Part shown: in pieces, positions 9,577 to 63,887 of the stretch
How positions within the stretch are numbered: position 1 is the first letter of the stretch
Layout of the letters: each line of letters opens with the position of its first letter
Source of the DNA: a virus
Taxonomy: Duplodnaviria > Caudoviricetes
IMG/VR virus record: IMGVR_UViG_3300026549_000032
Coordinates: 128,001 to 192,000 of that record
Reading direction: 5' to 3' (one strand)
Length of the DNA: 64,000 bases
Made by a program: the position numbers and the translations under genes
Notes under the pieces: model-generated
Seen by the model: only the letters and a program-made list of their open reading frames with translations
Databases searched by the model: none
What the model was told of the DNA's origin: nothing

Positions 9577-10260
9577 TTATTCCAAGGGTTTTGTCATGTC
9601 ATACTTATAAAGTTCAGCCGGAGAGACGAGATGTTTCTCGAAGAATTCCTTACATCTCTTCTTTCTAAACTCTAGTTCTCCTTCTGGAGTTCCATAAGTT
9701 TGCTGAAGCCAGCCGTAGGAAGAAAGTTCTTTCTTTTTCTTCTTCTCAGATTTCCAACGTTTCTTGATCTTCTCAAGGAGGGCAGCCTCTTCTTTCAGTT
9801 CTTCACGAAGTTTGATCATCATGGGCCAATCCTCCATGAATTCAATGATTTCATAGGTCTGTCTCTCTTCGGGTTTTAATTTCTTAATCCATTCCCGCTC
9901 GTCTTTGGTGGGTCTCCGGATAAGACGGCCATTATCGTCCTTGATATAGAAATAGTCGGAGTCGATAACATAATAGTTCTTAAGGAGGTAGTCTATGACA
10001 TCGTCCTTAGCTTCATCAATGTCAAGCATGGACCAACCTTCGGGGATCCAATCATAAGTGTCACCCCAATCTTTATTTGCCGGACTTGTATTATCATAAA
10101 TAGACAATTCTCCTCCCATGCCAGAACTTTTCCCGGAGTCAATAGACTCAAGGTCCTTCAAGATGTCGGCCACACTCTTTCCGTAGTTTCTAAAGATGAA
10201 AACTTCTGAGGATGAGTTGGTAATGACATCTGTCTTACTTCTTACTCTTCTTTTTGCCAT
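9577..10260 (-). CDS. TNSS-tag family protein 1
   Basis: N-terminus VRSKTDVITNSSSEVFI. Shares SGMGG..[IV]YDN with 10993..11547. Confidence 0.85.
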   Translation of the reverse strand: MAKRRVRSKTDVITNSSSEVFIFRNYGKSVADILKDLESIDSGKSSGMGGELSIYDNTSPANKDWGDTYDWIPEGWSMLDIDEAKDDVIDYLLKNYYVIDSDYFYIKDDNGRLIRRPTKDEREWIKKLKPEERQTYEIIEFMEDWPMMIKLREELKEEAALLEKIKKRWKSEKKKKKELSSYGWLQQTYGTPEGELEFRKKRCKEFFEKHLVSPAELYKYDMTKPLE

Positions 10261-10538
10261 GTTGTATCCTTTACTTTACTTTTACCAAATGCTCTCTTTA
10301 AGTGCTTCTCAGTATCAATCAGACCACAAGGGCCATGGAGATACTCTATATCAACGGCAGTCCCATCGAAGGTATCACTGAAATCTGCCGTAAAGATATC
10401 CGGTTTCTTTGGGTTATTCCTAGTTCCAAATGTACCAAGACCTTCTAGGTAATCATACCAAGTTTCCATGACGGTTTCCCAATCACCGCTCTTTTGGATT
10501 CGGTACGATTCTATAACCTCGTCGTATTTGTTGATCAT
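10242..10538 (-). CDS. Hypothetical protein
   Basis: 98-aa ORF overlapping both neighbours. Confidence 0.7.
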   Translation of the reverse strand: MINKYDEVIESYRIQKSGDWETVMETWYDYLEGLGTFGTRNNPKKPDIFTADFSDTFDGTAVDIEYLHGPCGLIDTEKHLKRAFGKSKVKDTTWQKEE

Positions 10539-23633: not shown

Positions 23634-24779
23634 TCATCTGTTAATGCTAGTAATGGCAGAAACAGAATTTGTGACCAACTTTGTGTTCGTAGTGAACTGC
23701 TGCAGGTCCCTTGCTCCTGCATATGACATCGCTGATCGTAGGTAATCTGTGAAATTCTCGACCCAAGCCTGCATGGTATACTCAACATCAAGTGTTGTTT
23801 CAATGCCCTCGCTCGTATGAGTCTTTTTACCGTTCATGGCTAACTGGCCACGTTTGGAAGCCATGCCATAGAACGTCTTCTTGATAGTGACCGGCCCGAG
23901 AAGGGTATTATCATCCTTCCACGCCATAAACTCGCCACTACCAAAGGTAACCCTATAGGTACCCATGAATTTCGTTAGATCATCTTGTTGTTGTTTGTCC
24001 TCGGGATCAACCCAAGAGACGGTTCCGGGAGCTGCGCTTTCTAGCATCTTAGTGAAGACAGAGCCAATCATGACTCGATCCGCACCCAAGGCTAAAGCTT
24101 TGATGGCGTCACTATATCCACGTACTCCTCCATCAGCCACTATGAGCGGAGTAGTATGGACCAATTGACCGCCTTCAGTTAACAGCCGCTTCTTAATGGA
24201 AGAAATCTCATTCAGGAGAGATGCCATAGGATATCCTACCCCAGTATTGGAAGAGGTTATGCAACCACGACCAACCCCTATACCGACTCGTACGTAATCG
24301 GCACAAGCTCTAGCGGCCGCTAGATAGGTTTCGGGATTCGCTATGTTCCCTACCATGACAATAAGATTCTTCGTCTGGGCCTTGGCTGAACGGACTAGGT
24401 TGTATAACTTTTCCATATGACCGTTCGCTATGTCAATGAGGACACGGAAGAACTTTCCATCCCATCCGTCCCAGATTGACTTTACGAAATACTCCTCAAA
24501 CTCTCCCAACGACATAGCCACCCAATACCCAAGACTGAGTAATTGGAGACGATCTGTAAGGGATTCCGTTCGAGGGATGATCGGTGTTATACCCTGAGCG
24601 ACCCAGAGATCCATATTATTAATCCCAATAACCGAATCCATCGGTGCCGTGAAGAGAGGAAGTTTATTAGTTCCTTCCTCTACGTAGGGATTGCAGTCTT
24701 TTCTTGAATCAATGGGGCTGACTGCTGCCGGTACAATTGAAACATCTTTATAGGAAAATTTCAATTCTGTATCTAACAT
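23634..24779 (-). CDS. IMP dehydrogenase / GMP reductase family enzyme (no CBS domain)
   Basis: TAPMD, IDIANGH, VGNIA, RVGIGVGRGCITS (catalytic Cys), ADGG, FYGMAS, SEG and LRSAMSY.G. Confidence 0.92.
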   Translation of the reverse strand: MLDTELKFSYKDVSIVPAAVSPIDSRKDCNPYVEEGTNKLPLFTAPMDSVIGINNMDLWVAQGITPIIPRTESLTDRLQLLSLGYWVAMSLGEFEEYFVKSIWDGWDGKFFRVLIDIANGHMEKLYNLVRSAKAQTKNLIVMVGNIANPETYLAAARACADYVRVGIGVGRGCITSSNTGVGYPMASLLNEISSIKKRLLTEGGQLVHTTPLIVADGGVRGYSDAIKALALGADRVMIGSVFTKMLESAAPGTVSWVDPEDKQQQDDLTKFMGTYRVTFGSGEFMAWKDDNTLLGPVTIKKTFYGMASKRGQLAMNGKKTHTSEGIETTLDVEYTMQAWVENFTDYLRSAMSYAGARDLQQFTTNTKLVTNSVSAITSINR

Positions 24780-25756: not shown

Positions 25757-26477
25757 AGTAAGTGAGGCTTGGTACTTCGGAAACAGAGAATATTTAAGTG
25801 AGGAAGTTGAAAAGAACGCCCTTGACTTCGAAAAACTAATTGACCCTAAGCTCTGGGAAGAAGATGATGAAGCTGACACCAATGTAACTGGTTGGGGCAC
25901 AGTTACTCTGGACTTCTATGTTCCTGATAATGGGCTAGTATCGGCGGAGGTCGGCAAGACAAAAGTTGGTTATTTTACGGACTTCGATCACGGAATTAAT
26001 TATGGGTCAGACGGATTTGATTGGCCTGATCATACAAAAGTAAGCGACGAAATGTTAGAATGGTTTTTGAAAGGAAAGAATAAGAAGATGGAAGAAGAAA
26101 AAGAATTCCTCAAGCAGAGAGCAATTTTCTGTGGTCTACCCAACGTTTGGGTTATGTATAAAGATACTCCATACCTTGTCTTTGGATATGGGGCTGGAAG
26201 ACTAGAACTCTTGACTAGTCCGCTTAGTTCGTGCACATACCCAGAAGCTCCTCTTATCAAAGAAGTTCAAGTTATCCTAAGAAAAGAGGAAGACCTAAAC
26301 GAAGAGGAAAAGAAAGAGTATGCTAAGATTGGTATGACTGACGAGCTTGAGGACTGGATGAATATACATTGTGTGGATCATCGAGACTTAATTTCACGGG
26401 GCTGGGCCGTTGATGCTGTTAGTCTAGGAGACAAGAACCCGTATAAATACGGAGTATGCTTTGGAGGCTTGATATAA
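25749..26477 (+). CDS. Hypothetical protein with a related C-terminal domain
   Basis: DWMNIHCVDHRDLISRGWAV resembles DWLNKHHFDYRGLIEKGLA of 44274. Confidence 0.75.
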   Translation: MSKVSEAWYFGNREYLSEEVEKNALDFEKLIDPKLWEEDDEADTNVTGWGTVTLDFYVPDNGLVSAEVGKTKVGYFTDFDHGINYGSDGFDWPDHTKVSDEMLEWFLKGKNKKMEEEKEFLKQRAIFCGLPNVWVMYKDTPYLVFGYGAGRLELLTSPLSSCTYPEAPLIKEVQVILRKEEDLNEEEKKEYAKIGMTDELEDWMNIHCVDHRDLISRGWAVDAVSLGDKNPYKYGVCFGGLI

Positions 26478-28918: not shown

Positions 28919-29393
28919 TGTTGTTATATCTATGGGGAGGTCCTATGTAGAGGATTTCCTCGCCTCAAAAAGAAAGATGAGCGAACAAATTCCCTCCTGG
29001 ACAACAATAGCTAGGTGGAGAGGTCATCCCGGAAGGGGGATAAGAGATTTTGGTTTAAATATAACAGATGCTCCTTTTACGAGAGAACTCTTACATGACT
29101 GGTGGGTACATGGAATCGTATCAAACCAGTGGAGAGGTGTCGATGGTACAAAAGCTTTGGAATTATTACCAAACAAAACTATTCATGACGCACTCCGTGA
29201 ATTTATCTACCCAGAAGTGAGTGGTGATTGGAGTGCTAGAGAGGAAAGAGAGGAGAAAGCTTTTGCGTTAGCAATTGTTAGGATAGACTCTCTATGGACT
29301 AAGTTTTGTGAATATTTTATAATTAGAAGATTAATATATGATAGAGTACAAAGAAGGGAACATTTTCACATCTCTAGCGCAGACTATTACTAA
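28887..29393 (+). CDS. MxW-tag protein (MLWQPI)
   Basis: Internal ATG of ORF 28842..29393. Confidence 0.7.
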   Translation: MLWQPIERKPDVVISMGRSYVEDFLASKRKMSEQIPSWTTIARWRGHPGRGIRDFGLNITDAPFTRELLHDWWVHGIVSNQWRGVDGTKALELLPNKTIHDALREFIYPEVSGDWSAREEREEKAFALAIVRIDSLWTKFCEYFIIRRLIYDRVQRREHFHISSADYY

Positions 29394-29967
29394 TACAGTA
29401 AACCTGATGGGAGTCATGGGAGCTGGCTTGGCGTTAGTCCATAAAGCCATATTTCCAAGGATGTATCAAACCTACAGGGACTACTGTAAGGCTGGTCAAT
29501 TTAAAGCAGGTCAGCTTTGGGTATGGGATCAGTCCTGGAAATGGCAGGTCTTAAACTTCCCGACGAAACGACATTGGCGTGATTGGTCAGAGATCCCTCT
29601 CATCGAAATGGGACTAATGAACTTAGTGAGAACGTATCAGGAGAGAGGAATAACTTCTCTGGCAATACCACTCCTGGGTTGTCAGAATGGTCACCTGAAA
29701 GAGAAGGATGTACTGCCAGTCATGGAGAAGTGGTTAGGACAGATGAATATCCCCGTAGAAATATGGAGACGAAATCCTGATGCCCCAAATCCAATCTGGA
29801 ATGAGCTTAAGTTTAAGTGTTCGGCAGGGAAGACAACTTTCGAGAGAATAGTTCTGGAATGTGAATCTTTCGAGGACTTGGTTAAACGACCAGGTATAGG
29901 AAGAGACTCTTGGGCTAAGGAAACAGGTAAAATACTAGGGATAGAGAAAGATGATATTCAGAATTAA
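29338..29967 (+). CDS. Macro domain protein (DarG/Poa1-like ADP-ribosylhydrolase)
   Basis: GNIF, NTVN..GVMGAGLA, NFPTK.HW and SLAIP.LGC.NG.L motifs. Confidence 0.9.
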   Translation: MIEYKEGNIFTSLAQTITNTVNLMGVMGAGLALVHKAIFPRMYQTYRDYCKAGQFKAGQLWVWDQSWKWQVLNFPTKRHWRDWSEIPLIEMGLMNLVRTYQERGITSLAIPLLGCQNGHLKEKDVLPVMEKWLGQMNIPVEIWRRNPDAPNPIWNELKFKCSAGKTTFERIVLECESFEDLVKRPGIGRDSWAKETGKILGIEKDDIQN

Positions 29968-30097
29968 TAATGATATATCTGACCTTGTCGGTTGGTATAA
30001 CGGAATACCTGTCATCCGAGTAGATCGAAGGGAATTGAAAAGAAAATATCTGACCTTCTTGACGATGCGAGATTTATTCGGAGTTCAGTTTATATGA
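29951..30097 (+). CDS. Microprotein MIFRIN (48 aa) with capsid-like G-x-Y-x-G-x-x-V segment
   Basis: Hand translation MIFRINNDISDLVGWYNGIPVIRVDRRELKRKYLTFLTMRDLFGVQFI, ATGA overlap with the next ORF. Confidence 0.75.
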   Translation: MIFRINNDISDLVGWYNGIPVIRVDRRELKRKYLTFLTMRDLFGVQFI

Positions 30098-30204
30098 AGT
30101 GGAAATTGAAAACGATAATTGCATCTTGGAAAGGGAAACAGCCCGTATTCCATGCAGAAAGATTTCCATTTCGTTTCTGGAATGAAATTTGGTTACCGGG
30201 ATGA
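30094..30204 (+). CDS. MxW microprotein MKWKLK (36 aa)
   Basis: Hand translated, ATGA overlaps at both ends. Confidence 0.75.
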   Translation: MKWKLKTIIASWKGKQPVFHAERFPFRFWNEIWLPG

Positions 30205-30368
30205 TTTGGAAAATAAATCAAACAGAAGAAATTGGGTACTCTATAACCCATGATAGACCTGTCTATAATTTTAGAAGGGAATATGGCCAAACAACTAGTA
30301 GCAATATATCTGATTGGTTTAAAGAATGGTATGGGAAGTTAAAAATACTAGAAGGAAACTTAGAGTAA
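30201..30368 (+). CDS. MxW microprotein MIWKIN (55 aa)
   Basis: Hand translated, ATGA overlap upstream. Confidence 0.75.
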   Translation: MIWKINQTEEIGYSITHDRPVYNFRREYGQTTSSNISDWFKEWYGKLKILEGNLE

Positions 30369-30508
30369 CTGTTAAGATACCTTTTGGCAAAGTATCATCC
30401 AATGGGATAATATATAACAGTGAAGCTCTTCTTGAAGCGATCAAAAGCTGTAATGGCCTAGGAGAGATAACTCATAAAAGTTCTGACGGACTATGGTTTG
30501 GAGTATAA
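30326..30508 (+). CDS. MxW microprotein MVWEVK with prohead-protease (gp21-like) fragment
   Basis: VSSNGIIYNSEALLEAIK...LGEITH resembles gp21-family N.NGRIY...L...LGEL.H. Confidence 0.75.
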   Translation: MVWEVKNTRRKLRVTVKIPFGKVSSNGIIYNSEALLEAIKSCNGLGEITHKSSDGLWFGV

Positions 30509-30726
30509 GCCAAGAGGTATTGTTTAGTGAAACCGTCGATAGATTCATGGGAGAATGGCAGAAAATACTTAGAGCGAGTATGCGTGCCTTCAGTGCTTCC
30601 ATGACAGTTGACTTGAATCCAAAGAATATAAACTATGTCACGAAGACTTCGACAGGAACGTGGATTCCAAGTCAGTATGACATAGATACGACTTTGGGAA
30701 ATAACAATATAGGATATTCGACATGA
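30493..30726 (+). CDS. MxW microprotein MVWSIS (77 aa)
   Basis: ORF track. LFS..VDRF is shared with the next ORF. Confidence 0.8.
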   Translation: MVWSISQEVLFSETVDRFMGEWQKILRASMRAFSASMTVDLNPKNINYVTKTSTGTWIPSQYDIDTTLGNNNIGYST

Positions 30727-30884
30727 CTTGGGAAGTAAATGCGATACTGTTTAGTAGGAAAGTTGATAGATTCTCTACTAAATTTAGAAGCTCTTTCCGA
30801 AAGGCAATGATGCTTTCCTACATGTATGGTGGGGATGGACATGTCGTATTTGATTACGAAACAGCAGGATGGAGTGGAAGTTAG
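30723..30884 (+). CDS. MxW microprotein MTWEVN (53 aa)
   Basis: Hand translated MTWEVNAILFSRKVDRF.., paralog of 30493, ATGA overlap. Confidence 0.8.
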   Translation: MTWEVNAILFSRKVDRFSTKFRSSFRKAMMLSYMYGGDGHVVFDYETAGWSGS

Positions 30885-31123
30885 CGAAACTAGGAATGCC
30901 TAAGCGTTTTTATGATAAGTTAGTCAGAGATGGGAATATAATATTTGCTCCCTACATGCCACTAACTAGTACGCCAACCATAGGCAACTTCAGCAATCCC
31001 GCGCAAACCGTAAATACCAAATATTATTGTGCGGATACTACTATCTGGTCTTCTAAGAAGATACATACTATCCGTCCCTGCACGCTTGACGAGGGAGGAG
31101 ATAGTGACGTTAGTGAAACATGA
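30869..31123 (+). CDS. MxW microprotein MEWKLA with major-capsid C-terminal-like fragment
   Basis: DGNIIFAPYMPLT...TKY resembles gp23-family G.YYAPYV.L...TRY. Confidence 0.8.
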   Translation: MEWKLAKLGMPKRFYDKLVRDGNIIFAPYMPLTSTPTIGNFSNPAQTVNTKYYCADTTIWSSKKIHTIRPCTLDEGGDSDVSET

Positions 31124-31290
31124 CTTGGAACTTTTCAGACACAATGACCATGGCGATAGAACAGAGGGGAAAGATGGGAAGAGGTCCTAAAAGACCTAAC
31201 CTACTCTACTGTTTTAAGACTTGGGTTGAATTGAAAGAGAAAAATGAAACGCTTTTCAAGGCGTGTGAGAAGGAGCTTTTGAGGAAATGA
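31120..31290 (+). CDS. MxW microprotein MTWNFS (56 aa)
   Basis: Hand translated, ATGA overlaps. Confidence 0.75.
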   Translation: MTWNFSDTMTMAIEQRGKMGRGPKRPNLLYCFKTWVELKEKNETLFKACEKELLRK

Positions 31291-31391
31291 TTTGGAGGAT
31301 CAATCCAAGAAAACGGACAAGGACTAGTGGTGTGTTTATCTTGACCAAGGATGGACTTAAGCCTATAAACATTCCGAGGACATGGAAATGA
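31287..31391 (+). CDS. MxW microprotein MIWRIN (34 aa)
   Basis: Hand translated, ATGA overlaps. Confidence 0.75.
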   Translation: MIWRINPRKRTRTSGVFILTKDGLKPINIPRTWK

Positions 31392-31513
31392 AGTGGAATA
31401 TAGACATAGATATTTCAAAAGTCCTCCGCCTACGGAGATTAGAATTGATGATGTTTGAGTATTACATTAATCATGATCTGGGACGTATTAATCGAAGAAA
31501 TAGGACTTGCTAA
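31388..31513 (+). CDS. MxW microprotein MKWNID (41 aa)
   Basis: Hand translated, ATGA overlap. Confidence 0.75.
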   Translation: MKWNIDIDISKVLRLRRLELMMFEYYINHDLGRINRRNRTC

Positions 31514-31598
31514 ACTAACCATCACTACTTCAACTAAAACAACAACTCATACATGTAAGTTGACGTTAATAACCTCCAGCGATGGTGTTAAACGTTGA
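31473..31598 (+). CDS. MxW microprotein MIWDVL (41 aa, Thr-rich)
   Basis: Hand translated. Confidence 0.7.
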   Translation: MIWDVLIEEIGLAKLTITTSTKTTTHTCKLTLITSSDGVKR

Positions 31599-31606
31599 AA
31601 GAAGAT

Positions 31607-31816
31607 ATGAGGTGGGAGTTTAGTGAACTGGTTAATAGATATGTTAGTCCTCCTATCCCAACACTAGATGATATGTCTAACTTAACCTTCTGGGAAAACA
31701 CCAACAGTAATCTCAGAGATGGGATAAAGGCATACAAACAATTATTACACGTTTACAATGCTTTGGGAGTTAAACCTGATTTTGAAACCCATCCTGTGGT
31801 GGGCGAGGGATTCTGA
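31607..31816 (+). CDS. MxW microprotein MRWEFS (69 aa)
   Basis: Internal ATG of ORF 31595..31816. Confidence 0.75.
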   Translation: MRWEFSELVNRYVSPPIPTLDDMSNLTFWENTNSNLRDGIKAYKQLLHVYNALGVKPDFETHPVVGEGF

Positions 31817-32024
31817 GATTTTCATAGTAGACAGAACCACAGATCCGGTCACCCAAGTAATAGAAGATACAGATGCAGCCTGGAATAGCTATCATGAATA
31901 TCAAGCAAAGTACGGGACAAGACTCTTTCCAGAGTACCCAAGCAGGAATGACTGGTATTTTGCAGTAGCTATGACTATGCTTGAGAATGGTGATTATAAA
32001 CTAGAAGTATGCAGTGGGAAATAA
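31758..32024 (+). CDS. MxW protein MLWELN (88 aa)
   Basis: ORF track. Confidence 0.8.
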   Translation: MLWELNLILKPILWWARDSEIFIVDRTTDPVTQVIEDTDAAWNSYHEYQAKYGTRLFPEYPSRNDWYFAVAMTMLENGDYKLEVCSGK

Positions 32025-32392
32025 GAATAAATCCTAAGAAGTCAGCTAAGATACTAAATGATGAGGTGAGACTGATGGATATGATCCTAGAAGCTGAGAA
32101 AACTGGAGTTCGTCCAGACACTCTCTACTTTAAAAATCCTTTCGGCGGAAATAACCTTGATTACTCTCACTTCAAAGACCTACAGTCTTGTAGAGACAGG
32201 TGGGACGATGTTGAAGAACTAATCCTTAGGAAAAATGTAGTCATGCATAGTTACGTCGCAACTGTCGGCAGGAACTATGAAGGCTATGTCAAGTTTCTTA
32301 AGAGATGGAAATGTGATAGGAGTATAATCTCTGAAGAGAACTTTAATAAGTGGTGTGATGAGGTGGAAAATAGATCAAGCGAAGATGTTTAA
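32009..32392 (+). CDS. MxW protein MQWEIR (127 aa)
   Basis: ORF track. Confidence 0.8.
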   Translation: MQWEIRINPKKSAKILNDEVRLMDMILEAEKTGVRPDTLYFKNPFGGNNLDYSHFKDLQSCRDRWDDVEELILRKNVVMHSYVATVGRNYEGYVKFLKRWKCDRSIISEENFNKWCDEVENRSSEDV

Positions 32393-32465
32393 TATGTACT
32401 TTGAATATTTTCGCGATAAGATCTTCAAAGCAGCGAAAATTCCAAAAGAACGTTTTAGTCAATGA
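32358..32465 (+). CDS. MxW microprotein MRWKID (35 aa) with portal (gp20-like) fragment
   Basis: Hand translated MRWKIDQAKMFNMYFEYFRDKIFKAAKIPKERFSQ. Confidence 0.8.
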   Translation: MRWKIDQAKMFNMYFEYFRDKIFKAAKIPKERFSQ

Positions 32466-32575
32466 CTTGGAAGCTCTATGACACCCCAGAAGACAAGGCT
32501 AGGTTTGCTTTGTGGAAGTTCTTGAAGGACGAAGCATTTAAGAAGCTATGGAATGGAAACTCACCGACGACCTAG
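32462..32575 (+). CDS. MxW microprotein MTWKLY (37 aa)
   Basis: Hand translated, ATGA overlap. Confidence 0.75.
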   Translation: MTWKLYDTPEDKARFALWKFLKDEAFKKLWNGNSPTT

Positions 32576-32721
32576 AAGGGAATACTCGTTTGATTCTGAG
32601 AAAGTACACTGGGTTGAAACTTACTGATTCAGTGAAGGCTAAAATGGAAGAAGACATAAAGAAAGCCGTTATCACAGAATGGTTAAAAGGCGGGCTTAGT
32701 TCGTTATGGTCTGGAAAGTAA
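32548..32721 (+). CDS. MxW microprotein MEWKLT (57 aa), possible tail-sheath-like segment
   Basis: Hand translated ..LEGNTRLILRKYTGLKLTDSVKAKMEEDIKKA.. Confidence 0.75.
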   Translation: MEWKLTDDLEGNTRLILRKYTGLKLTDSVKAKMEEDIKKAVITEWLKGGLSSLWSGK

Positions 32722-32816
32722 CTAATGTACTAAGACCACATCAGAAAGAGTTTTTCGGTTGGCTTAAAGGAGAAGTAGAAAAGAAAATGCAGGAATTAAT
32801 AAAGTTGGGTATCTAA
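32706..32816 (+). CDS. MxW microprotein MVWKVT (36 aa) with Q-motif-like LRPHQKE
   Basis: Hand translated. Followed by a terminator-like hairpin and the next promoter-like motif. Confidence 0.75.
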   Translation: MVWKVTNVLRPHQKEFFGWLKGEVEKKMQELIKLGI

Positions 32817-40096: not shown

Positions 40097-41107
40097 CGTC
40101 TATCCTCCTCTTAAAGTAATACTTACTTCCATGAATCGGACCACACTCGGGGCCACAGTTAATGGGATATGTCGTAGTGGGCTCTATCCCACACATTTCC
40201 CAACCCTGTTTGCCAAGGGATGTTAGGGTCTTGATGTCGAGAGAAGTCAGGGTCTTATATTCCCAAAGATCACCTTCGTAGTCATAATCTTCCTCATCCT
40301 CGTCGTCTTCATCCTTATTGTACTCGTCGAGAGGACCTAAGAGAGCCTCTAGTTCCTTTAACCTGGTGTAGAGAGTCTCATTCGTTACTGTATACTCGGT
40401 GTAATCCTTCTTATCGCCTTCAAAGGAAACTGTGATGTAGCTCTTGTAGAGTATCTCTTTGCTGTTTTCATTTACATACTTAATGCTCCCTAGACGAATG
40501 GCGGAGATAGGAACGATCTTTGAATTGAAAATTCCTTCCTTGTACATGTCCTCCTCTGCCTCCACTTTGAAGGGATAGTACCAGTGAGGTCTATATTTTT
40601 CACCTGCTCTAGCGACTAGTTTACGCTCAAAGTCACCATAAGATTCGTCCCAGTAGAGGTCTTTTATTTTACCACCACTGTCTAAGCGTTCCTTTATTGT
40701 TTCAACGATATTCTTTACTACCATATTACTTTTCGTTTAAGCCAAAACTTATTAGCATGTTTCCACTGTCCTTCCTTATTGTCCATGACTGGTTGAACAC
40801 TAACCAGTTCCCAACCAAGTTCCCCATACTCGTTGAGGTCTTTCTCAGTTATGTTTAGTCGGGTTATGTATTCGAACTTATCAGGCCTTCTACTGTAGTT
40901 GGAGGTTATGCTGGATCTGAAATTCCACTTATCATCCCAATCTTTAAACTCTCCATAGACTTCAGTCCCATCAAGTTCTTCTATGGTTAGTCCATAATGA
41001 CCTGGTCCATCTTTTATTCTAGCTACACGACTCGGACCATAATACTGTTTTTTGATAGGCTGTTTCTCTTCTTTACTCATGATCCCGTTCTGGTGCAGTA
41101 ATGCCAC
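40083..41107 (-). CDS. Two proteins with C-terminal DUF4177-like domains (40083-40724; 40718-about 41080)
   Basis: WEYKTL...LGKQGWEM...YYFKR and FEYITR...LNEYGELGWELVSV...FWLKR. Confidence 0.7.
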
Positions 41108-41937
41108 TCAGTCAGTTCCTCAATCTTCTTCCAGTCTTTGTCACTGGGGTTGCTACAATCATCAGCCCAGAAGTCCATGCAATCACCATCCAAGTCATTG
41201 GGAGTAGTGGGAATTTTGACGGAATTGGTTTTGAGGATTTCGTCGAATGGAGGAAAGTCCTTCTCATGTTCCTCTAACCAGTCCATTAGACCGTAATCCG
41301 CGAAGTTAAATCTGGCACTATAGTATAGGAAGTCTTTCTGCCTATCTGTTTCGAACCAAGACTTGCCTTCATCGTTGGTGTAAGTCCGGAGAAAGTTCTC
41401 CTTATGGTTCTTTTCCCATGGCTTCTCAGGATCAGGAACGATGGCTTTTACCTTCTGAATTACACTCACCACATAATTTCTGAACTCCTGAATTAATGGA
41501 GTTGGTGTCTCAAGTTCTGGGTAATATTTATACTCATGCTGCTTTCCGTCCCACTCAAGCATTTTTATTGCAATCTCAGGGACCTTCGGATCAAAGAGGT
41601 AGTTCAGAAGTGTATCCCAGTAGACTTTATTCTTGTTAACGGGGTCAGGGCAAGCTCCCCATATTTCTCGGTACATATCATTTTCATCCTCTTTGAAACC
41701 TGGGGCTTGGTAAGAATCTTCATAAACCCAATCCTCTTCTTCACCCTCTTCAGCCTTTTTCATAGCATCCTTGAGACTCTTAACCCACTCTTTATAGCGG
41801 TCATAAGAGAACTGGATAAGTCTAAAGAATGGGATCTTCTTCTTTAACTCCTCAAAGGTAATACCTTCCTTTGGTCCACATATAAAGACCTCAGTCGAGG
41901 AGTTAGTAATAACGTCTGTCTTACTTTTGATCTTCAT
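41077..41937 (-). CDS. TNSS-tag family protein 4
   Basis: MKIKSKTDVITNSSTEVFI. Confidence 0.85.
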   Translation of the reverse strand: MKIKSKTDVITNSSTEVFICGPKEGITFEELKKKIPFFRLIQFSYDRYKEWVKSLKDAMKKAEEGEEEDWVYEDSYQAPGFKEDENDMYREIWGACPDPVNKNKVYWDTLLNYLFDPKVPEIAIKMLEWDGKQHEYKYYPELETPTPLIQEFRNYVVSVIQKVKAIVPDPEKPWEKNHKENFLRTYTNDEGKSWFETDRQKDFLYYSARFNFADYGLMDWLEEHEKDFPPFDEILKTNSVKIPTTPNDLDGDCMDFWADDCSNPSDKDWKKIEELTEWHYCTRTGS

Positions 41938-42694
41938 TTCTTTTCTTGATTATATGATTCTTTGTATCTAATTCCCAAATCTCGTTTATGGCAATCTCAT
42001 CCATAAACTTCTTCACCTCTTCTGGAGTGGCTGGTCTTATATCATCCTTATCCATTATAGTCAAGGGACCATCTATCGCCCTGTCTAGTTGGAATCCACC
42101 GTCGTAGGAAGGATGATAGGTAGAGATTTTCTGTCTATCCTTTGATAACATGAGGACAAACCTAATCCCTTTGTAGGACTTTGTGAGTCGTTCCATGCTT
42201 TTATCGAAGAAAACTGTTACCATAGAACCATCATTTGGGAGACTCTCAACCAGACTCTGCATTCTTTCCTTATGCTTCATCTCTTTCCAGTCGTCGACCA
42301 GACTTCGTCCACCACATTCGGTATCATGAGATCCGAAAGCATAGCCAACGAGGTCCTTGTAATGATGTTTGGTCTTTTCCCAAATTTCGTCGATGGTCTG
42401 CCCTGGGTAGTCATAGAGGAAGTTTCCTTTCTCTTCCCATGGGTCCTCATCTGGGAGGGGAATTTTATCTATGTTGCCTGTTGACCACAAGTCGTTCCAA
42501 GCCCAACCTTTATAATCACGATCGGTTATGGTTTCCTTTAAGTCATCCAATGTATTAACTTCCCAGAGATCTAGCTCTTGGCCTTGTTCTTTAATCCAAG
42601 CCTTCATGTCGAAGTAGTCTTTGTCCATCTTGAATATGAACACTTCAGTACTACTATTCGTTATAACATCCGTTTTAGATTTAACTTTTATCAT
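41921..42694 (-). CDS. TNSS-tag family protein 5
   Basis: MIKVKSKTDVITNSSTEVFI, start at the internal ATG. Confidence 0.85.
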   Translation of the reverse strand: MIKVKSKTDVITNSSTEVFIFKMDKDYFDMKAWIKEQGQELDLWEVNTLDDLKETITDRDYKGWAWNDLWSTGNIDKIPLPDEDPWEEKGNFLYDYPGQTIDEIWEKTKHHYKDLVGYAFGSHDTECGGRSLVDDWKEMKHKERMQSLVESLPNDGSMVTVFFDKSMERLTKSYKGIRFVLMLSKDRQKISTYHPSYDGGFQLDRAIDGPLTIMDKDDIRPATPEEVKKFMDEIAINEIWELDTKNHIIKKRNEDQK

Positions 42695-42697
42695 ATT

Positions 42698-42708
42698 CCT
42701 TATTAAGG
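42698..42708. promoter_or_regulatory. Palindromic CCTTA-T-TAAGG at a divergent gene junction
   Basis: Reads CCTTA-N4-GG on both strands, a few nt from the starts at 42694(-) and 42722(+). Confidence 0.65.
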
Positions 42709-42721
42709 TAATGAAAAAGTT

Positions 42722-45181
42722 ATGAATCAAGAAAAATTTAAAATTACAAACACAACAGAACTAAAAGACGGTGAAATTATAAAAAGTGGAGACATCTGGG
42801 CGGCTTATAAAGGTCAGTCTCCGAAAGATCCGGAACAGATGTTAGTTCACTTCTCTATTAATATAGCAACTGGTACCCTCAGGAAAGAGGAGCATGAAGT
42901 ACCGAAGTGCTTGGGTTGGGGAAGAACGTCTCTGTTGATGAGATGTGAGTCCTTTCTTCCAGCCCTCGATAGGCACGGTTATGTATGGAATAATGTGATG
43001 AGAAAATTAATTGCATTCCATGGCTAAAAAGGAAAGAACTGAGAAAGTCAGAAAGTACTTAGAGTCTCTCGACAAAGGAGCACTCTTATCAATCATTAAG
43101 TACGGCTTGAGAGGAGATAGTAGTGCACCTCCTGAAGTTACTGTGGAGGACATATACGAAGTAATTGGTTGTCAATATATAAGTGAAGTAGTATGAAAGA
43201 TTACAGCGGAAAGAGTTTAAGCGAACTAAGTCGCGAAGAAGTTGCAGAGATTATTAAAGTTGGTGAAAAACTTCCTAAAGAGCTGTCCATTGTTGGATGG
43301 GATGATATCGAGGAGGATGAACTCGTTGATGACTCCGCCCTTGAGGAACAAGCTACCCACGAATGGGTTAGGGAGAATTTCGTCGGCAAGTGTTTCATGG
43401 ATACCCGCCAGACGATTGTCTTGAAGATACTCAGAGTTCGTGACAGTGACGGTCCTGATGAATTCCTGTTTGAGGAGTTTGACAAGGACGATAAGACTGG
43501 TTCTTGGGGACTCATGGAGTATTACATGTACGAGCAGCAGGGTGAACCTAAGCTTGATGTACATGGCCCTGATCACGTATTTGTTGAGCAGAACGTCTTT
43601 GATGGATACTGTATGGGCAATGATGGTAATTTGTACTTGGAGAAAGAGGAGTCAGGAATGTATATACCCCTCCGACCGATCGAGGAAGAGGCCTTCAATA
43701 AGATCAAGGCAGAAGTTTACGAGGACTATAAACTCGGCTATTGATGGACTGTAAGGGATGAACTAAGCAACTGTTACGATGGTCTATGTGAAATGATTAA
43801 AGTATATAAAGATGTTGACTGACGAACAGATTGAGGCACGTGCCTTAGAGATATTCCCCGTTCGAGAGAAGGAGAATAAGAAAGCGACTGGCACCTATGA
43901 TAGTAACTTTCCAAGGCGGAAGGCCTATATACAGGGTTGCAAAGACTTTAGGGATCAACTCCTAGCCAAAGCAGCGAGAACTACTTCCAAAGTTATCAAG
44001 GCTCAGGAAGAGGATACGTGTAGACCCTACTTGGCACTTGAGAATTTATGTTATATCCCCGCTCCAAAGTTTTGTGAGGAAGGGGATAAAGTTACGGTTA
44101 TAATGATTAAAGAAGATGTTTGAAGATGCAAAAGCAGCATTATCCGCTGCATATGGTCTCGTAGAAGACAGATTAATGCAACACGACTACCGGACTGGTC
44201 CTGGCAAGAAGGCTCGGAAAAAGAAGAAGGCTGCACGCCGTCGGGAGAAACAAGGACGAAGAAATAGTAGGCGATGAGCGATAAAGATAAGAAACTTCTT
44301 TTAATAGATCTAAGTGCCAGATTGCCTTATAGACAGTTTGTCTTATTAGGCGGAAAAGAAACAGTTATGCTGTGTGGCATTGATGGTGATGAAGTATACC
44401 TAAACATTGACTCAGATTCATTTCATGTAGAAAGCATCAAACCTTATCTCAGGCCAATGTCTTCAATGACGAGAGATGAATCCTATGAGTTAGATCACGT
44501 TGAAGAGAGATATGATAATCACTACGATTCGATAGTTGCACAAATTGATTGGCTCAATAAGCATCATTTTGATTATCGTGGACTAATTGAAAAAGGTCTT
44601 GCATTGGAGGCACCAAAGGGAATGTATGGTACGGACCTGCACAACAATTGAACAATCCAGAGAAGTGGTGGAAAGTCGGGAAGACAATATCACTTCTCCT
44701 ACCCTCCCTGTATTCTAGAGATATGAAAGAAGAAGATAGAGAATTATTGTATAGGGAACTATGTGCTAGAAAACCTTTTGGAGTAATAGCTAGTACTATA
44801 AAGGATGTAGATACTAGTGTGGATCTAGGGCATGGAAACTATAAGCAGGCCAAATTCACTGGAAGGATTAGTTGTATATCTTACCCAATAATTAGCATAA
44901 GTGATGAGACCCTTGAAGAGTCGGGTGATTCTCACATTGATAATGTCCGGCCTTATCTTCGTTCAATATCCTCATTAACTGCAGAAGAGGAAAAGGAAAG
45001 AAGAGAGTTAGGAATTTGGATAAAACAGATCTCGAAAGATAAAGTAGTATTCAAAGGAATAGAGTTAGAGTCAGATTTTACAAAAGCTTTAAACTGGATT
45101 TATCAGCACCACTTAGATATAAATGGGTTGATAGAAAAAGGTCTAGCTTATGAAGCACCAGATGGAATGTATCGATTATGA
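42722..45181 (+). CDS. Hypothetical genes 42722, 43011, 43193 (acidic), 43812, 44116-44277 (basic tail, hand translated), 44274, 44648
   Basis: Mostly overlapping ORFs. The last two are paralogs (PYLR..SS.T..E; GLIEKGLA.EAP.GMY). Confidence 0.7.
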
Positions 45182-59446: not shown

Positions 59447-60019
59447 ATGAAAGAAAAAGTAGAGCTAGTGATAAGAGCAAACGATTACTCAACGGAAGAC
59501 TTGAAGGCACTTTATATCAGAAATAGAGATGCCTTGGTCCTCGATGAGAAGGCTAGTAATAGTAAAATAGAAGATTCTATCCGAGACTGTAAAGGAGCCG
59601 TGATGATGTTAGGTCATGGTACCGAGAATGGACTCTTAGGAGTTTTAAACCTAGATACCTTTGAATCTAATCGCTTCCTGATTTCCTCTAGACATGTCCA
59701 GTTTTTGCGAGGGAAGACCTGTGTAGGGATATGGTGTAATGCTAATGTCTTTGCTGGGAAGTATGGTCTTACTGGGTTGTTCTCTGGTATGGTCGTATCG
59801 GAGTTTGAAGAGGCTGTTATGCTATCTATTCAAGCTGATAAAGATGAAATCCTAGCCCACAATTACATCTGGTCTGGTGACTTGTCCTATTGTTTGGCGA
59901 ACTACGACCTGAAGGATGTTCCAGCAGCTATGCTAGAAAGAGATAAGTGGCATACTCCACTAACGGAATTCAATTATTCATCTTTATATTACTTCGAGAA
60001 TGGGGAAGAACTTTTGTAA
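59447..60019 (+). CDS. Possible caspase-hemoglobinase-fold (His-Cys) protein
   Basis: VMMLGHG and VGIWCNA motifs. Preceded by a 30-aa TM ORF at 59358-59450. Confidence 0.55.
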   Translation: MKEKVELVIRANDYSTEDLKALYIRNRDALVLDEKASNSKIEDSIRDCKGAVMMLGHGTENGLLGVLNLDTFESNRFLISSRHVQFLRGKTCVGIWCNANVFAGKYGLTGLFSGMVVSEFEEAVMLSIQADKDEILAHNYIWSGDLSYCLANYDLKDVPAAMLERDKWHTPLTEFNYSSLYYFENGEELL

Positions 60020-63000
60020 GGTGGAAGGCAAGTGGTGTAAGCTCCTGAGACGTGGAGTCTGTGGAGAAACAAAGACAGACCTGAATCAGGTTAACCGTTG
60101 TCCAAAGCTGGCTAGAATAGAGACAAGAAGATTGGCAGATCTCTTAAAGGAAGTTAGTTTTGATCCTGTCTTCTATAAGCTCTGCCACTGGTTTAACGAT
60201 CAGGAAGGTAGTCGAAATGGATATGAGAGTGTTTTTAATAAACTTGTTCTCATGAGTCCGAAGAAACATAGGCTCGATGACTTGTTTATTGAAATTCACA
60301 TAGTCAAAGAAGACGATGGTAGTGAATGGCTTAACGTCAGTGGTGTTAGTGTGCTTGGAAGCGATACCACCAGCTATGGAATTGAGTTTAATCCTTGGCG
60401 AGATTGGGTATCATCCTTCATAACCCAGAAAACTCTTGACACTCTTGATAAAGAGGACATTGTAGCAGCTTGCCTCTATGAAATGACCTTCTTTGGATTC
60501 GAGGAACAGAGAGTCCAAGACGAGAAGAACAAGATATTCAATAGTATAGAGGAATGTAAGAAAGCAGTTAAAGATGGGAAGATTTAAATACAAGGATAAG
60601 TTTACTGAAGAAGAGATCAAGGCTGATGCCAAGAGAAAGGAAGAAGAGGATAAAAGGAAGTATGGCGATAAGATGCCGAGACTTCTGACAGGAAAAGATT
60701 ATCTGAGACTTTCCAAGGAATGGTTTAAACTTGAAACCACGGTAAACTCCTATGCCAATTCCATGGATGTCCCTGAAAAATATTGGGATTTTTGGTTTGC
60801 GTATGGTCATTTTGATAACGATTTTGATGGTTATTTTGCAGAGGCAGCTGGAGAACTTTCTGAACAGTATACAACTGAGATGAGAAGTGCTGTCTTGAAC
60901 TATGCTTGGCATACATATAACAAGAAGGAAGGTGAGGAGATAACTTACCCAGCACCGACCTTAGAGAAATACTTAGACGATGTCTTTGAAAGAGAGCTTC
61001 GTGCATTCAGAGACGAAGATACCTTAGAGAAGATTATCCGAACATCTGTCGCCCTGAAAGCTGGTATCAGAGATGTTAATAACCAGAGCTTTGATAAAGA
61101 ATTCAACAATATTCTGAATTACTTCAAGCCGGGGACTGATGGTAGAGAACATTGCTATATTGGTAAGAAGAGAGTTTTTGAGTTCTTAAACGAAGCTCAA
61201 TATAACTCAGAGAAGATAAACATAACTCCGAAAAACTATAAGAATTGTTGGTGGAACGGAGACGTCATGGTTTGTCATATAAGTGGTGAAGAAATTGATA
61301 TATTATGAACAGCGAACAAGAACAAAAAGCAAGAGAAGTAAAGGATAAAGTAATATCCGACTTCAAAAAGATTAATGAGATGATGGTTCATGCATTACCT
61401 TTGAAAGATGTCATCTCTATCCTGAAGACTGTTATCCAAATACTGGAAGATCAAAGTGAAGGACAGGACCACGGAAGTACTTGTCTCTTCTATTCCTATA
61501 GAGAGGAGGAAGAAAGGTTCTCTATTAGTATCAGATTTGATCAGTCTTATAAAGTCTACTACAAGGAAGACAACTATCGAGTTGGAGTAGGATATAACTG
61601 TAAGTATGAAGATACTAAACCTCTTGACGAAACAGCAGGTATAGTTTTAAGATATATTCTAAGAGTTCTTATTGAAGACTTGTTAGAGAATTGTAATTCA
61701 ACAAGCTCTTTACTAACTTATATAATAGATCACAAAGATGAATAAGAAAGCGTTATTAGAATTACTCAGTTTTCCGTCAGAGAAAGTATTGCCAGGGACT
61801 GATGTAGAGAAGCTGAAAGTTTATGAGAAAGATCTTAATAAGATTCTTGATCAGTTAGCAAGCTATAAAGAGAAGATCAGAGAACAACTCAGAGAGAAAG
61901 AGGTTGAGCCCAGATTAAAAGAAGTGGCTCAAATAATCTTCGACGCTTATCCAGAAGTTGAATTTATCGCCATCTTAGAGAGATATTGTTCGGACGATGA
62001 TTCTGGTAACTGTTATTACTGCACAGAAACGACGAATAACGTATTTCCAGATATTAATGAAGATGATGATCCTTCTAGATGGACGAAAAAGGTGGAATCA
62101 GCGTATGAAGAACTGTGTAATCTCTTCACAGAGTTGTATCCAGATCTAAACTTTGATGATGAAGATAATGCAGCATTCTGTAGGCCAAAAGCTTACTACG
62201 GAATAGATAAAGAGTTTGATGCTGCCAGATGGGAAGAGGAGTAAATTCTTCTCTTCTTTTTCCTTACCTATGTGAATATATTTGGAATGAAGACTAGAAA
62301 ATGTAAGGATTGTCCCTTCGCACAAGCAATTGAAGGAATTAAGGATAAAGTTAAGTGTACCCTTCATATTGATAAAAAGTGGTACAATGAAAAAGAGCTT
62401 GATCATAAGTGTGACTTCTCAGAGGAAACCGTTAAGCTCCTGAGTGGTCAGAAACCTAGCCAACATAGGTTGTTTGTTCTTGTGAACGATAAGTTCAAAG
62501 GCAATATGACTGAAACTCTCAAGTGGGCTGGTAGAGCCATAGTCCAATATTATAGAGACATCATGGAGCTTTATGCCGATTATGCTTTCTCTAGTACAGA
62601 TGATGAGTTCCAAGACTACTTTGGGGAAGCTTGGGCTGGTCCAGCAGAGTTTGTATATCTTTGGTATCCAGAGGAAGACTTTAAGGGTTGGTCTAGGTGT
62701 CACTGGAATTTTAGGAACAATGGTCTTAAGTATATTACCGCTAGTAATGCTGAGGATGAAAATAATCAGATTATGTCCGTCGCTATCTGGGAAGATGACA
62801 TCTATGATAAGAACAACTATGATTACTGTGACTATGACTGGGGTATTGAATATGCCCTGAAGATATTGGAGAAAGAATTAAAGAGGATTACATAAATAAT
62901 GGACTAATGGTGTATAGCATTGACCCAATAGTATTAAGCAAAGGCTCAGAGATACTCATGTATCTTACAACTAGGATAGTACGGGACTTAGAGCAACAGA

Positions 63001-63161
63001 AGATTAGCGCAGTCCAAACTACTTATAACGGAAGTGGATCTTCGGATATTTCTATTATCCCTATTAGAGGAGGACTGAGAACATTTCACTTCTACGATGG
63101 AAAAGACAAAGAGAATAAGGATGAACTCGAAAGCTTGAGGAAATTCTTAGGTTGGAAATGA
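60000..63161 (+). CDS. Hypothetical genes 60000 (DUF6557-like), 60574, 61305, 61738, 62272, 62907 (MVYSID)
   Basis: ORF track. 60000 has YGIEF.PW..W and CLYEMTFFGF. Confidence 0.7.
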
Positions 63162-63329
63162 ATGGTCTGGAATTTCACTAAACAGCTAAAAGCTATTCGT
63201 TCTAGGACAGGAGCAGGAATGGCTAACATTAAACGAGCTTTTTTCAAGAATAGATGTAATGTAGATAGAGCCGTAACAGATATTAATGGATTTCCGGATA
63301 GTGGATATGTAATCTTAAGTACGAAATGA
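63162..63329 (+). CDS. MxW microprotein (55 aa) carrying an EF-Ts N-terminal-domain-like segment
   Basis: Hand translated MVWNFTKQLKAIRSRTGAGMANIKRAFFKNRCNVDRAVTDI.., compared with EF-Ts [30 protein letters not shown]. Confidence 0.8.
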   Translation: MVWNFTKQLKAIRSRTGAGMANIKRAFFKNRCNVDRAVTDINGFPDSGYVILSTK

Positions 63330-63463
63330 CTAGGAAAGAAGAGATAGAGAAACAGATTGCAGAAAATGCAGAAGCCTTTAAACGTGGTGATATGACCTAT
63401 GAGGAACTTCACAGTGAGCAATACCTCCTGTTTAAAGAGCTGAGGGAGATAGAAGGAGAATGA
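63326..63463 (+). CDS. 45-aa acidic helical microprotein
   Basis: Hand translated, ATGA overlap. Confidence 0.65.
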   Translation: MTRKEEIEKQIAENAEAFKRGDMTYEELHSEQYLLFKELREIEGE

Positions 63464-63506: not shown

Positions 63507-63887
63507 ATGAAAGCAGCAAATTACGGTATTAGTAACAAATTTCCTTGTGCTGTATTTATTTATCAGGTAGAATCACCTGACGGAGGAAATGACAGAACTA
63601 GGGCAATAGCTAGAACTTGGGAAGAACTTAGTTATTATGTGGTTCAAGCTCTCCTCGATGAGCAAGATAGCTATTATATCAAGCTTGGAGACGAGAAGAT
63701 TGACTTAACTGATGAAGAGCTCTTTAAGAAGATTGATCAGAAGTGGCCACAGACTACTAGATATCAGGCTATGGTCTACCTCTTAGAGAGATCCATCCGA
63801 GAGGGTACTGAGGAAGATATAGAGAACGCCTTGAAGGATTTCAACAAAACTTACCCAGATCTTAAGTTCAAATGGATAAAGAGATAA
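63507..63887 (+). CDS. Hypothetical protein
   Basis: Follows the promoter-like motif at 63476. Confidence 0.75.
   Translation: MKAANYGISNKFPCAVFIYQVESPDGGNDRTRAIARTWEELSYYVVQALLDEQDSYYIKLGDEKIDLTDEELFKKIDQKWPQTTRYQAMVYLLERSIREGTEEDIENALKDFNKTYPDLKFKWIKR

Follow-up and report, generated by a model that had tools for sequence, protein, structure and literature searches.

No bacterial protein is more abundant than elongation factor Tu (EF-Tu), which is also a hub in the conflict between phages and their hosts: it is cleaved by Lit and by type IV Thoeris, acts as a scaffold for Avs7, is modified by toxins and is borrowed by the Q-beta replicase (PMC12803255, PMC9825190). Both EF-Ts and the ribosomal protein L7/L12 contact EF-Tu at helix D, and EF-Ts largely protects EF-Tu from being modified by the toxin Tre-Tu, for which anchoring on helix D has been modelled (PMC9825190). 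The interface between EF-Tu and EF-Ts is negative on the EF-Tu side and positive on the EF-Ts side; in Mycobacterium tuberculosis, R13 in helix 1 and K24 in helix 2 of EF-Ts bond P114/E155 and D144/D145 of EF-Tu domain I (PMC9529903).

Some phages encode pieces of EF-Ts. For example, gp247 of the Caulobacter phage Colossus is a truncated EF-Ts of 98 aa that includes core subdomain N and, within it, the catalytic Phe (PMC3556154), and gp21 of the Lactococcus Ceduovirus is a truncated EF-Ts consisting of the C-terminal part (PMC7150918); both were proposed as translation boosters. Also, a 59-aa protein of the Sinorhizobium phage phiN3 (A0A0F6WCQ0) is named "Elongation factor Ts-like protein" in UniProt/BFVD.

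By description, the Colossus and Ceduovirus proteins carry other pieces of EF-Ts than the 55-aa protein described here (the mini-protein), and the closest system to the latter is the N-terminal domain of EF-Ts (residues 1-54 in E. coli, 1EFU chain B; M. tuberculosis, 7VMX chain A; the first ~50 positions of TIGR00116). The mini-protein and this domain share an in-register match over 35 residues, the T-G-x-G-M turn, a three-helix bundle and the position at the N-terminus of the polypeptide. Unlike EF-Ts, the mini-protein stands alone at 55 aa without the core, the dimerisation module or the C-terminal module; and unlike the EF-Ts N-domain, which is near-neutral or acidic, it is strongly basic and adds a set of invariant residues and a short conserved tail of its own.

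The stretch of DNA that was analysed, called the window, is 64 kb long and covers bases 128001-192000 of a linear IMG/VR virus record of 218,381 bp. Coordinates refer to the window unless another record is named.

The mini-protein gene and its relatives

The mini-protein gene (P0001) lies on the plus strand at 63162..63329 including the stop codon, begins with ATG and encodes 55 aa. Its translation equals the peptide quoted in the original prediction, followed by a tail of 17 residues. The first five residues (63162..63176) read M-V-W-N-F, an instance of the start motif M-x-W-polar-hydrophobic. Residues 7-43 (63180..63290) are predicted to form the EF-Ts N-terminal-like (TS-N, UBA-like) three-helix domain, which is supported by TIGR00116, alignments to PDB sequences, our own hidden Markov model (HMM), AF2, Foldseek and VIA, and which contains the T-G-A-G-M turn and the Arg13 and Lys24 positions. 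The C-terminal tail, residues 44-55 (63291..63326), is predicted to be disordered, with pLDDT below 50 at residues 47-55 in the AF2 model, and is partly conserved among orthologs as P-[DE]-x-G-Y-V; the G-Y-V is retained in ortholog P0005, and the tail of ortholog L017 is shorter and different.

The gene is packed tightly between plus-strand neighbors. The stop codon of an 84-aa gene upstream (62907..63161) abuts its start (TGA ATG), and its own stop overlaps the start of a 45-aa gene downstream (63326..63463; ATGA), which is probably helical. Next in synteny is a gene of 126 aa (63507..63887). In the related contig L009 the orthologs of these three neighbors are 59%, 82.5% and 42% identical, respectively. 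The 45-aa gene is the best conserved neighbor, and all related contigs have it 3' of the mini-protein gene. None of the three neighbors matched a Pfam or PHROG family, and no match to the mini-protein was found in PHROGs. On the opposite strand, a 109-aa ORF (63092-63421, minus strand) spans the whole mini-protein gene and displaced it in the longest-ORF tiling; its frame is broken by stops in L009, and it is unlikely to be a gene.

Word-based and exhaustive protein searches, together with a metagenome scan, gave orthologs of 49-55 aa at 51-98% identity. P0002, P0003 and L014-L016 have 55 aa and are 93-98% identical to the mini-protein; L017 and L018 have 49 aa (63%), and the most distant, P0005, has 53 aa (51%). 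The contig of P0005 carries the 84-aa, 45-aa and 126-aa neighbors (59%, 82.5% and 42% identity) and one additional gene upstream. The pairwise dN/dS of the mini-protein gene is 0.04-0.43; in the comparison with L017, dS is saturated and dN is 0.18. Gene calls in four independent assemblies contain the gene. Because the orthologs keep the same neighbors, dN/dS lies in this range and L009 has stops in the antisense ORF, we take the ORF, as far as sequence comparison can tell, to be a conserved protein-coding gene.

Outside these relatives little was recovered. A DNA search of the phage collection gave nothing, tblastn of the mini-protein against the same collection gave only noise at E=4 in ICP1 phages, and scans of IMG/VR and GTDB genomes with the family patterns gave no relative. 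No fused form of the domain was found in a search of longer proteins. Three proteins that had appeared in the representative search (P0004, P0007 and P0008) were rejected as spurious; they are long repetitive proteins that score through summed low-complexity stretches.

Sequence similarity to EF-Ts

The original prediction had taken the body of the protein for a mimic of the EF-Ts N-terminal domain, citing the hexapeptide R-T-G-A-G-M, and had proposed a profile search. The alignment confirms that the hexapeptide is identical to residues 14-19 of E. coli EF-Ts, and the profile search came out positive, in support of the body being a homolog of this three-helix domain. The tsf model TIGR00116 matches the mini-protein with E=0.0031, P0003 with E=0.00035 and P0005 with E=4.4e-6. 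These matches are in register, running from positions 6-8 to positions 39-48 of both protein and model (7-39 for the mini-protein). When all six frames of the record were scanned with the same model, a single site was found, at model positions 7-40.

The other sequence searches point in the same direction. When the mini-protein alone was compared with the PDB, all five matches at E<10 were EF-Ts. With the family profile against 177,635 PDB sequences, the best six matches were all EF-Ts (E=7e-5 to 5e-4), and with a four-member family profile the first match after EF-Ts came at E=0.58. We also built an HMM of the EF-Ts N-domain from residues 1-55 of EF-Ts from eight bacteria, taken from mislabelled bacterial records within the phage collection, and ran it unfiltered on every stop-to-stop segment of the 218-kb record (3,240 in total). 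The mini-protein ORF scored E=4.8e-6 and the runner-up segment E=2.5. In Pfam there was no significant match for the mini-protein itself; of the six family members, one is matched by PF25025 (EF-Ts_N), a model of mitochondrial EF-Ts, with E=0.053, under its cut-off of 33.2 bits, and the HMMER filters drop weak hits.

The family keeps the turn T-G-x-G-[ML] between helices 1 and 2, followed by x-x-K-[KR]-A. T16, G17, G19, K24 and R25 are invariant in the six members, A26 is present in five of them, and residue 20 is M or L. R13 and K24 of M. tuberculosis EF-Ts align with R13 and K24 of the mini-protein, and both are invariant across the family. Taken together, residues 7-43 are very probably homologous to the N-terminal domain of EF-Ts, and we hold this with high confidence. 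The description of the domain as a host-derived piece did not fare as well. Compared with the EF-Ts N-domains of eight bacteria from different groups, the mini-protein is 20-34% identical with no clear nearest group, so that no nearer donor emerges and a recent capture from the host is conjectural.

The differences from EF-Ts are also marked. The net charge of the family members is +4 to +7 with pI 9.7-10.6, and that of the eight bacterial EF-Ts N-domains is -2 to +1. The invariant W3, F5, F27, F28, N30 and C32, and the partly conserved G-Y-V tail, are without counterpart in EF-Ts. The match to TIGR00116 covers model positions 7-40 of 293 and reaches 16.8 bits against a cut-off of 104.05, and neither the tsf scan nor our own HMM found any other EF-Ts segment in any frame of the 218-kb record.

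Predicted fold

The AF2 model, which is of moderate confidence and was built on a shallow alignment, has helices at residues 2-16, 20-29 and 34-43 followed by a disordered tail, with a mean pLDDT of 71.5. In Foldseek, EF-Ts chains align with this model at 0.9-1.2 A rmsd over 34-36 residues with 30-35% identity, and the UBA domains of NAC fit equally well at 19% identity (TM 0.6-0.65, 0.5-0.7 A rmsd over 35 residues). In VIA-align the top rows are the EF-Ts chains 1xb2_B (Z=8.2) and 1aip_C (Z=7.2), tied with UBA domains at Z~7. Structural searches with this predicted model do not separate EF-Ts from other UBA-like domains.

UBA and UBA-like domains, such as the C-terminal UBA of NAC alpha, those of HHR23A and Cbl-b and the Pfam UBA families, have the same compact three-helix fold as the mini-protein, but they are only 13-20% identical to it and no sequence profile of a UBA family matches. 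The fold is UBA-like, and the sequence points to EF-Ts specifically. As far as is known, there is no ubiquitin system in bacteria or their phages that a UBA domain could read.

Other phage pieces of EF-Ts

Two further phage ORFs with an EF-Ts N-terminal-like domain were found, neither of which is annotated. In the Ralstonia phage RSP15, a 70-aa ORF (L019:1444-1656, which is ~110782-110994 of NC_030948.1) consists of a solo domain of this type (..LRERT..) and sits between ORF136 and the gene of a ssDNA-binding protein. In the uncultured phage LR745208.1 (485 kb), the last ~40 residues of a 105-aa ORF (L020:1300-1617) are EF-Ts N-terminal-like (..VKELRKRTNVGILDCKRAL..). With hhalign probabilities of 84-91%, both ORFs carry the same N-terminal domain as the mini-protein. 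In the phage collection, tblastn gave no direct sequence match between the mini-protein family and the other phage pieces of EF-Ts.

The proteins of Colossus, Ceduovirus, phiN3, RSP15 and LR745208 resemble the mini-protein in being small, in having one piece of EF-Ts and in coming mostly from large phages; the M-x-W start is absent from all of them. The RSP15 ORF resembles proteobacterial EF-Ts far more than the mini-protein does: it is 63% identical to the E. coli peptide, which suggests that it was captured separately and more recently. As judged from these comparisons, several large phages that are not related to one another carry independent solo copies of the EF-Ts N-domain, and one such copy lacks annotation in a RefSeq genome. 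Charge, the M-x-W start and the tail set the mini-protein family apart from the other copies. In the ESM Atlas there are also clusters of ~50-aa viral proteins in which about 10% of the members are labelled EF-Ts_N or UBA.

Ordinary EF-Ts N-termini were seen in eight records of the phage collection (AFYI01000001.1, CAKLQF020000002.1, OQ572403.1, OR844988.1, OR846595.1, OR846775.1, MT838987.1 and MT835604.1). Only two of these are annotated, both with a full-length tsf, and one of the two belongs to Salmonella according to its own taxonomy; of the six records without annotation, three bear the flag UNVERIFIED and the other three UNVERIFIED_ORG. Since these records look like bacterial DNA, the matches to them are not counted as phage EF-Ts genes.

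Proposed role and alternatives

The reading that we prefer, to which we would give about an even chance, is that the mini-protein is a small basic accessory protein, a diverged solo EF-Ts N-domain, which docks non-catalytically on the EF-Tu of the host. It would sit on the helix-D face of the EF-Tu G domain without catalysing exchange, and could act there as a competitor of EF-Ts or L7/L12, as a shield, or as a handle. The docking is put forward on the strength of the retained contact residues R13 and K24. An isolated EF-Ts N-domain makes up just one part of the surface with which EF-Ts meets EF-Tu, and its affinity alone may be low; the excess positive charge of the mini-protein may compensate for the missing contacts of the EF-Ts core. 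No gene of an EF-Tu-type GTPase (GTP_EFTU) was found in the 218-kb record, which is itself an estimated 60% complete, so any EF-Tu partner would be that of the host. That EF-Tu is the actual target is, on the sequence evidence, about as probable as its opposite or slightly less so. Co-folding of the family alignment with the EF-Tu of Flavobacterium johnsoniae (EFTU_FLAJ1), used as a stand-in for the host, gave no verdict in a run without controls (score 0.01, mark 0.32), and speaks neither for nor against binding. The original prediction had also brought in Lit, and this link is speculative.

The homology to EF-Ts could be real and the domain nevertheless re-used as a UBA-like binder of some host or phage protein other than EF-Tu. 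Candidates for such a partner are the product of the coupled 45-aa or 84-aa neighbor, or a reader of the M-x-W peptide. We regard this as rather unlikely, though it deserves to be taken seriously. UBA-like folds have many partners and their scores in the structural comparisons match those of EF-Ts, the clusters of ~50-aa viral proteins in the ESM Atlas bear mixed UBA-type labels, and W3, F5, F27, F28, N30 and C32, invariant in the family and absent from EF-Ts, could form a different binding surface. The neighbors are moreover conserved and translationally coupled, most strikingly the 45-aa gene. On the other hand, the sequence searches give EF-Ts specifically and no other UBA family, and both of the residues that touch EF-Tu in EF-Ts are invariant here despite their surface position.

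A role driven by charge, for example as a basic helical binder of RNA or DNA, is improbable in our opinion. In such a role the likeness to EF-Ts would reflect distant ancestry or convergence without functional meaning. Three independent profiles agree in register and the glycine turn and the helix pattern fit the TS-N domain, which argues against it, and the Pfam and structural searches returned no nucleic-acid-binding family or fold. What favors it is the pI and the net charge of the family, which at its upper end of +7 would suit a nucleic-acid binder, along with the lack of a Pfam family and the modest E-values that each single sequence obtains.

It is very improbable that the mini-protein is a phage substitute for EF-Ts that speeds nucleotide exchange on EF-Tu and thereby boosts translation, although the idea has published precedent (PMC3556154, PMC7150918). 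The catalytic part of EF-Ts, that is, subdomain N with the conserved Asp and Phe of the TDFV region (PMC9529903, PMC3556154), is absent, the match being confined to model positions 7-40 of 293, at 16.8 bits against 104, with no other piece of EF-Ts in the record. As the whole core of EF-Ts, which also contacts EF-Tu domain III, is lacking, the mini-protein, to go by its predicted domain content, cannot catalyse the exchange, and we exclude this activity. Finally, that the ORF is a chance open frame or is not expressed, as the overlapping antisense ORF of 109 aa in the window might suggest, is scarcely credible with frame, length and start kept down to 51% identity, dN/dS well under 1, stops in the antisense frame of L009 and calls of the gene in four independent assemblies.

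If solo EF-Ts domains do bind helix D of EF-Tu, as the docking reading has it for the mini-protein, they would be simple and portable phage factors for tuning or protecting the translation machinery, and could serve as ready-made EF-Tu ligands of 40 residues.

The M-x-W start motif

The original prediction had described the mini-protein as an M-x-W tag fused to the domain. The motif part of this description holds: the motif is real and is common to ~20 other small ORFs of the record. The part about fusion goes too far: the motif is not a separate module but simply the first five residues, at a place where EF-Ts has a short N-terminal lead of its own, and N4-F5-T6 of the mini-protein align with N-F-T of M. 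tuberculosis EF-Ts.

Among ORFs of at least 30 aa, 22 starts of the form M-x-W-polar-hydrophobic are present on the plus strand of the record, against 1.2 in codon-shuffled controls, an enrichment of about 18-fold. Most of them lie at 30094-32816 (plus strand) of the window, in an array of 17 back-to-back and mostly overlapping ORFs of 34-127 aa, all with M-x-W-(polar)-(hydrophobic). Further copies are scattered at 26456, 33346, 34368, 54135 and 54550. In the related contigs L029-L031, Trp-3 and the M-x-W pattern persist while residue 2 changes; and in the mini-protein family MVW[N/D]F is found in all six orthologs while the remaining protein falls to 51% identity, with codon 2 varying synonymously (GTC vs GTG). 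From the retention of Trp-3 beside a variable residue 2, and from the synonymous changes in codon 2, we infer that the constraint acts on the M-x-W peptide.

The proteins that share this start have little else in common. An all-against-all BLASTP of 29 M-x-W ORFs gave only three weak pairs, none of them with the mini-protein, and the AF2 models of two M-x-W proteins differ, with three helices in the mini-protein and a two-helix hairpin in the ORF at 32548-32721. The latter (plus strand) is a 57-aa ORF starting with M-E-W that is 81-98% identical in 25 database proteins. It was considered as a second EF-Ts-like domain because of scores of E=0.038 with PF25025 and E=2.5 with our own HMM, where it was the runner-up, but was rejected: its hhalign probability is 2%, it has no TIGR00116 or PDB match, and its model is the hairpin.

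The shared peptide may give ~20 small phage proteins a common handling step, be it a partner, a localisation or a turnover route. A more elaborate version, which we consider a long shot, makes M-x-W a linear tag with one reader, the ~20 mini-proteins a toolbox of binders or decoys, and the 55-aa member a handle for EF-Tu. EF-Tu may then be brought to the reader, or hidden from Lit, type IV Thoeris, Avs7 and ADP-ribosylating toxins. Shortly upstream of the array is a gene for a 209-aa Macro-domain protein (29338-29967, plus strand; PF01661, E=7.5e-9), separated from the array by a 48-aa ORF (29951-30097); the same arrangement is seen in L029-L031. The Macro-domain protein could be an ADP-ribose-removing counter-defence gene product, and its position just before the array would fit a counter-defence cluster.

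Genome context

The 218-kb record is estimated by CheckV to be 60% complete and has 40% G+C. Its relatives are metagenome contigs of up to 419 kb. For a conserved protein of 731 aa, the best matches come from an uncultured 462-kb phage, at 44% identity, and from Cellulophaga phages, at 36%; by this one protein the Cellulophaga phages are the nearest cultured relatives. The record yielded no tRNA genes, and neither Bacteroidota-type nor sigma-70 promoter motifs are enriched in it; Shine-Dalgarno-like motifs are present upstream of only 34 of the 303 ORFs.

Several other genes of the window were noted. The block of small plus-strand genes to which the mini-protein gene belongs also contains a DUF6557 protein (60000-60587, plus strand; E=4e-30). 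On the opposite strand to the mini-protein gene is a gene of the IMPDH/GMP-reductase family (23634-24779, minus strand; PF00478, E=4.5e-35). At 9577-11547 and 41077-42730, both on the minus strand, at least five genes share a near-identical N-terminal peptide (..SKTDVITNSS[ST]EVF..) and diverge afterwards, and they form a second family of the source phage whose members have just their N-terminus in common.
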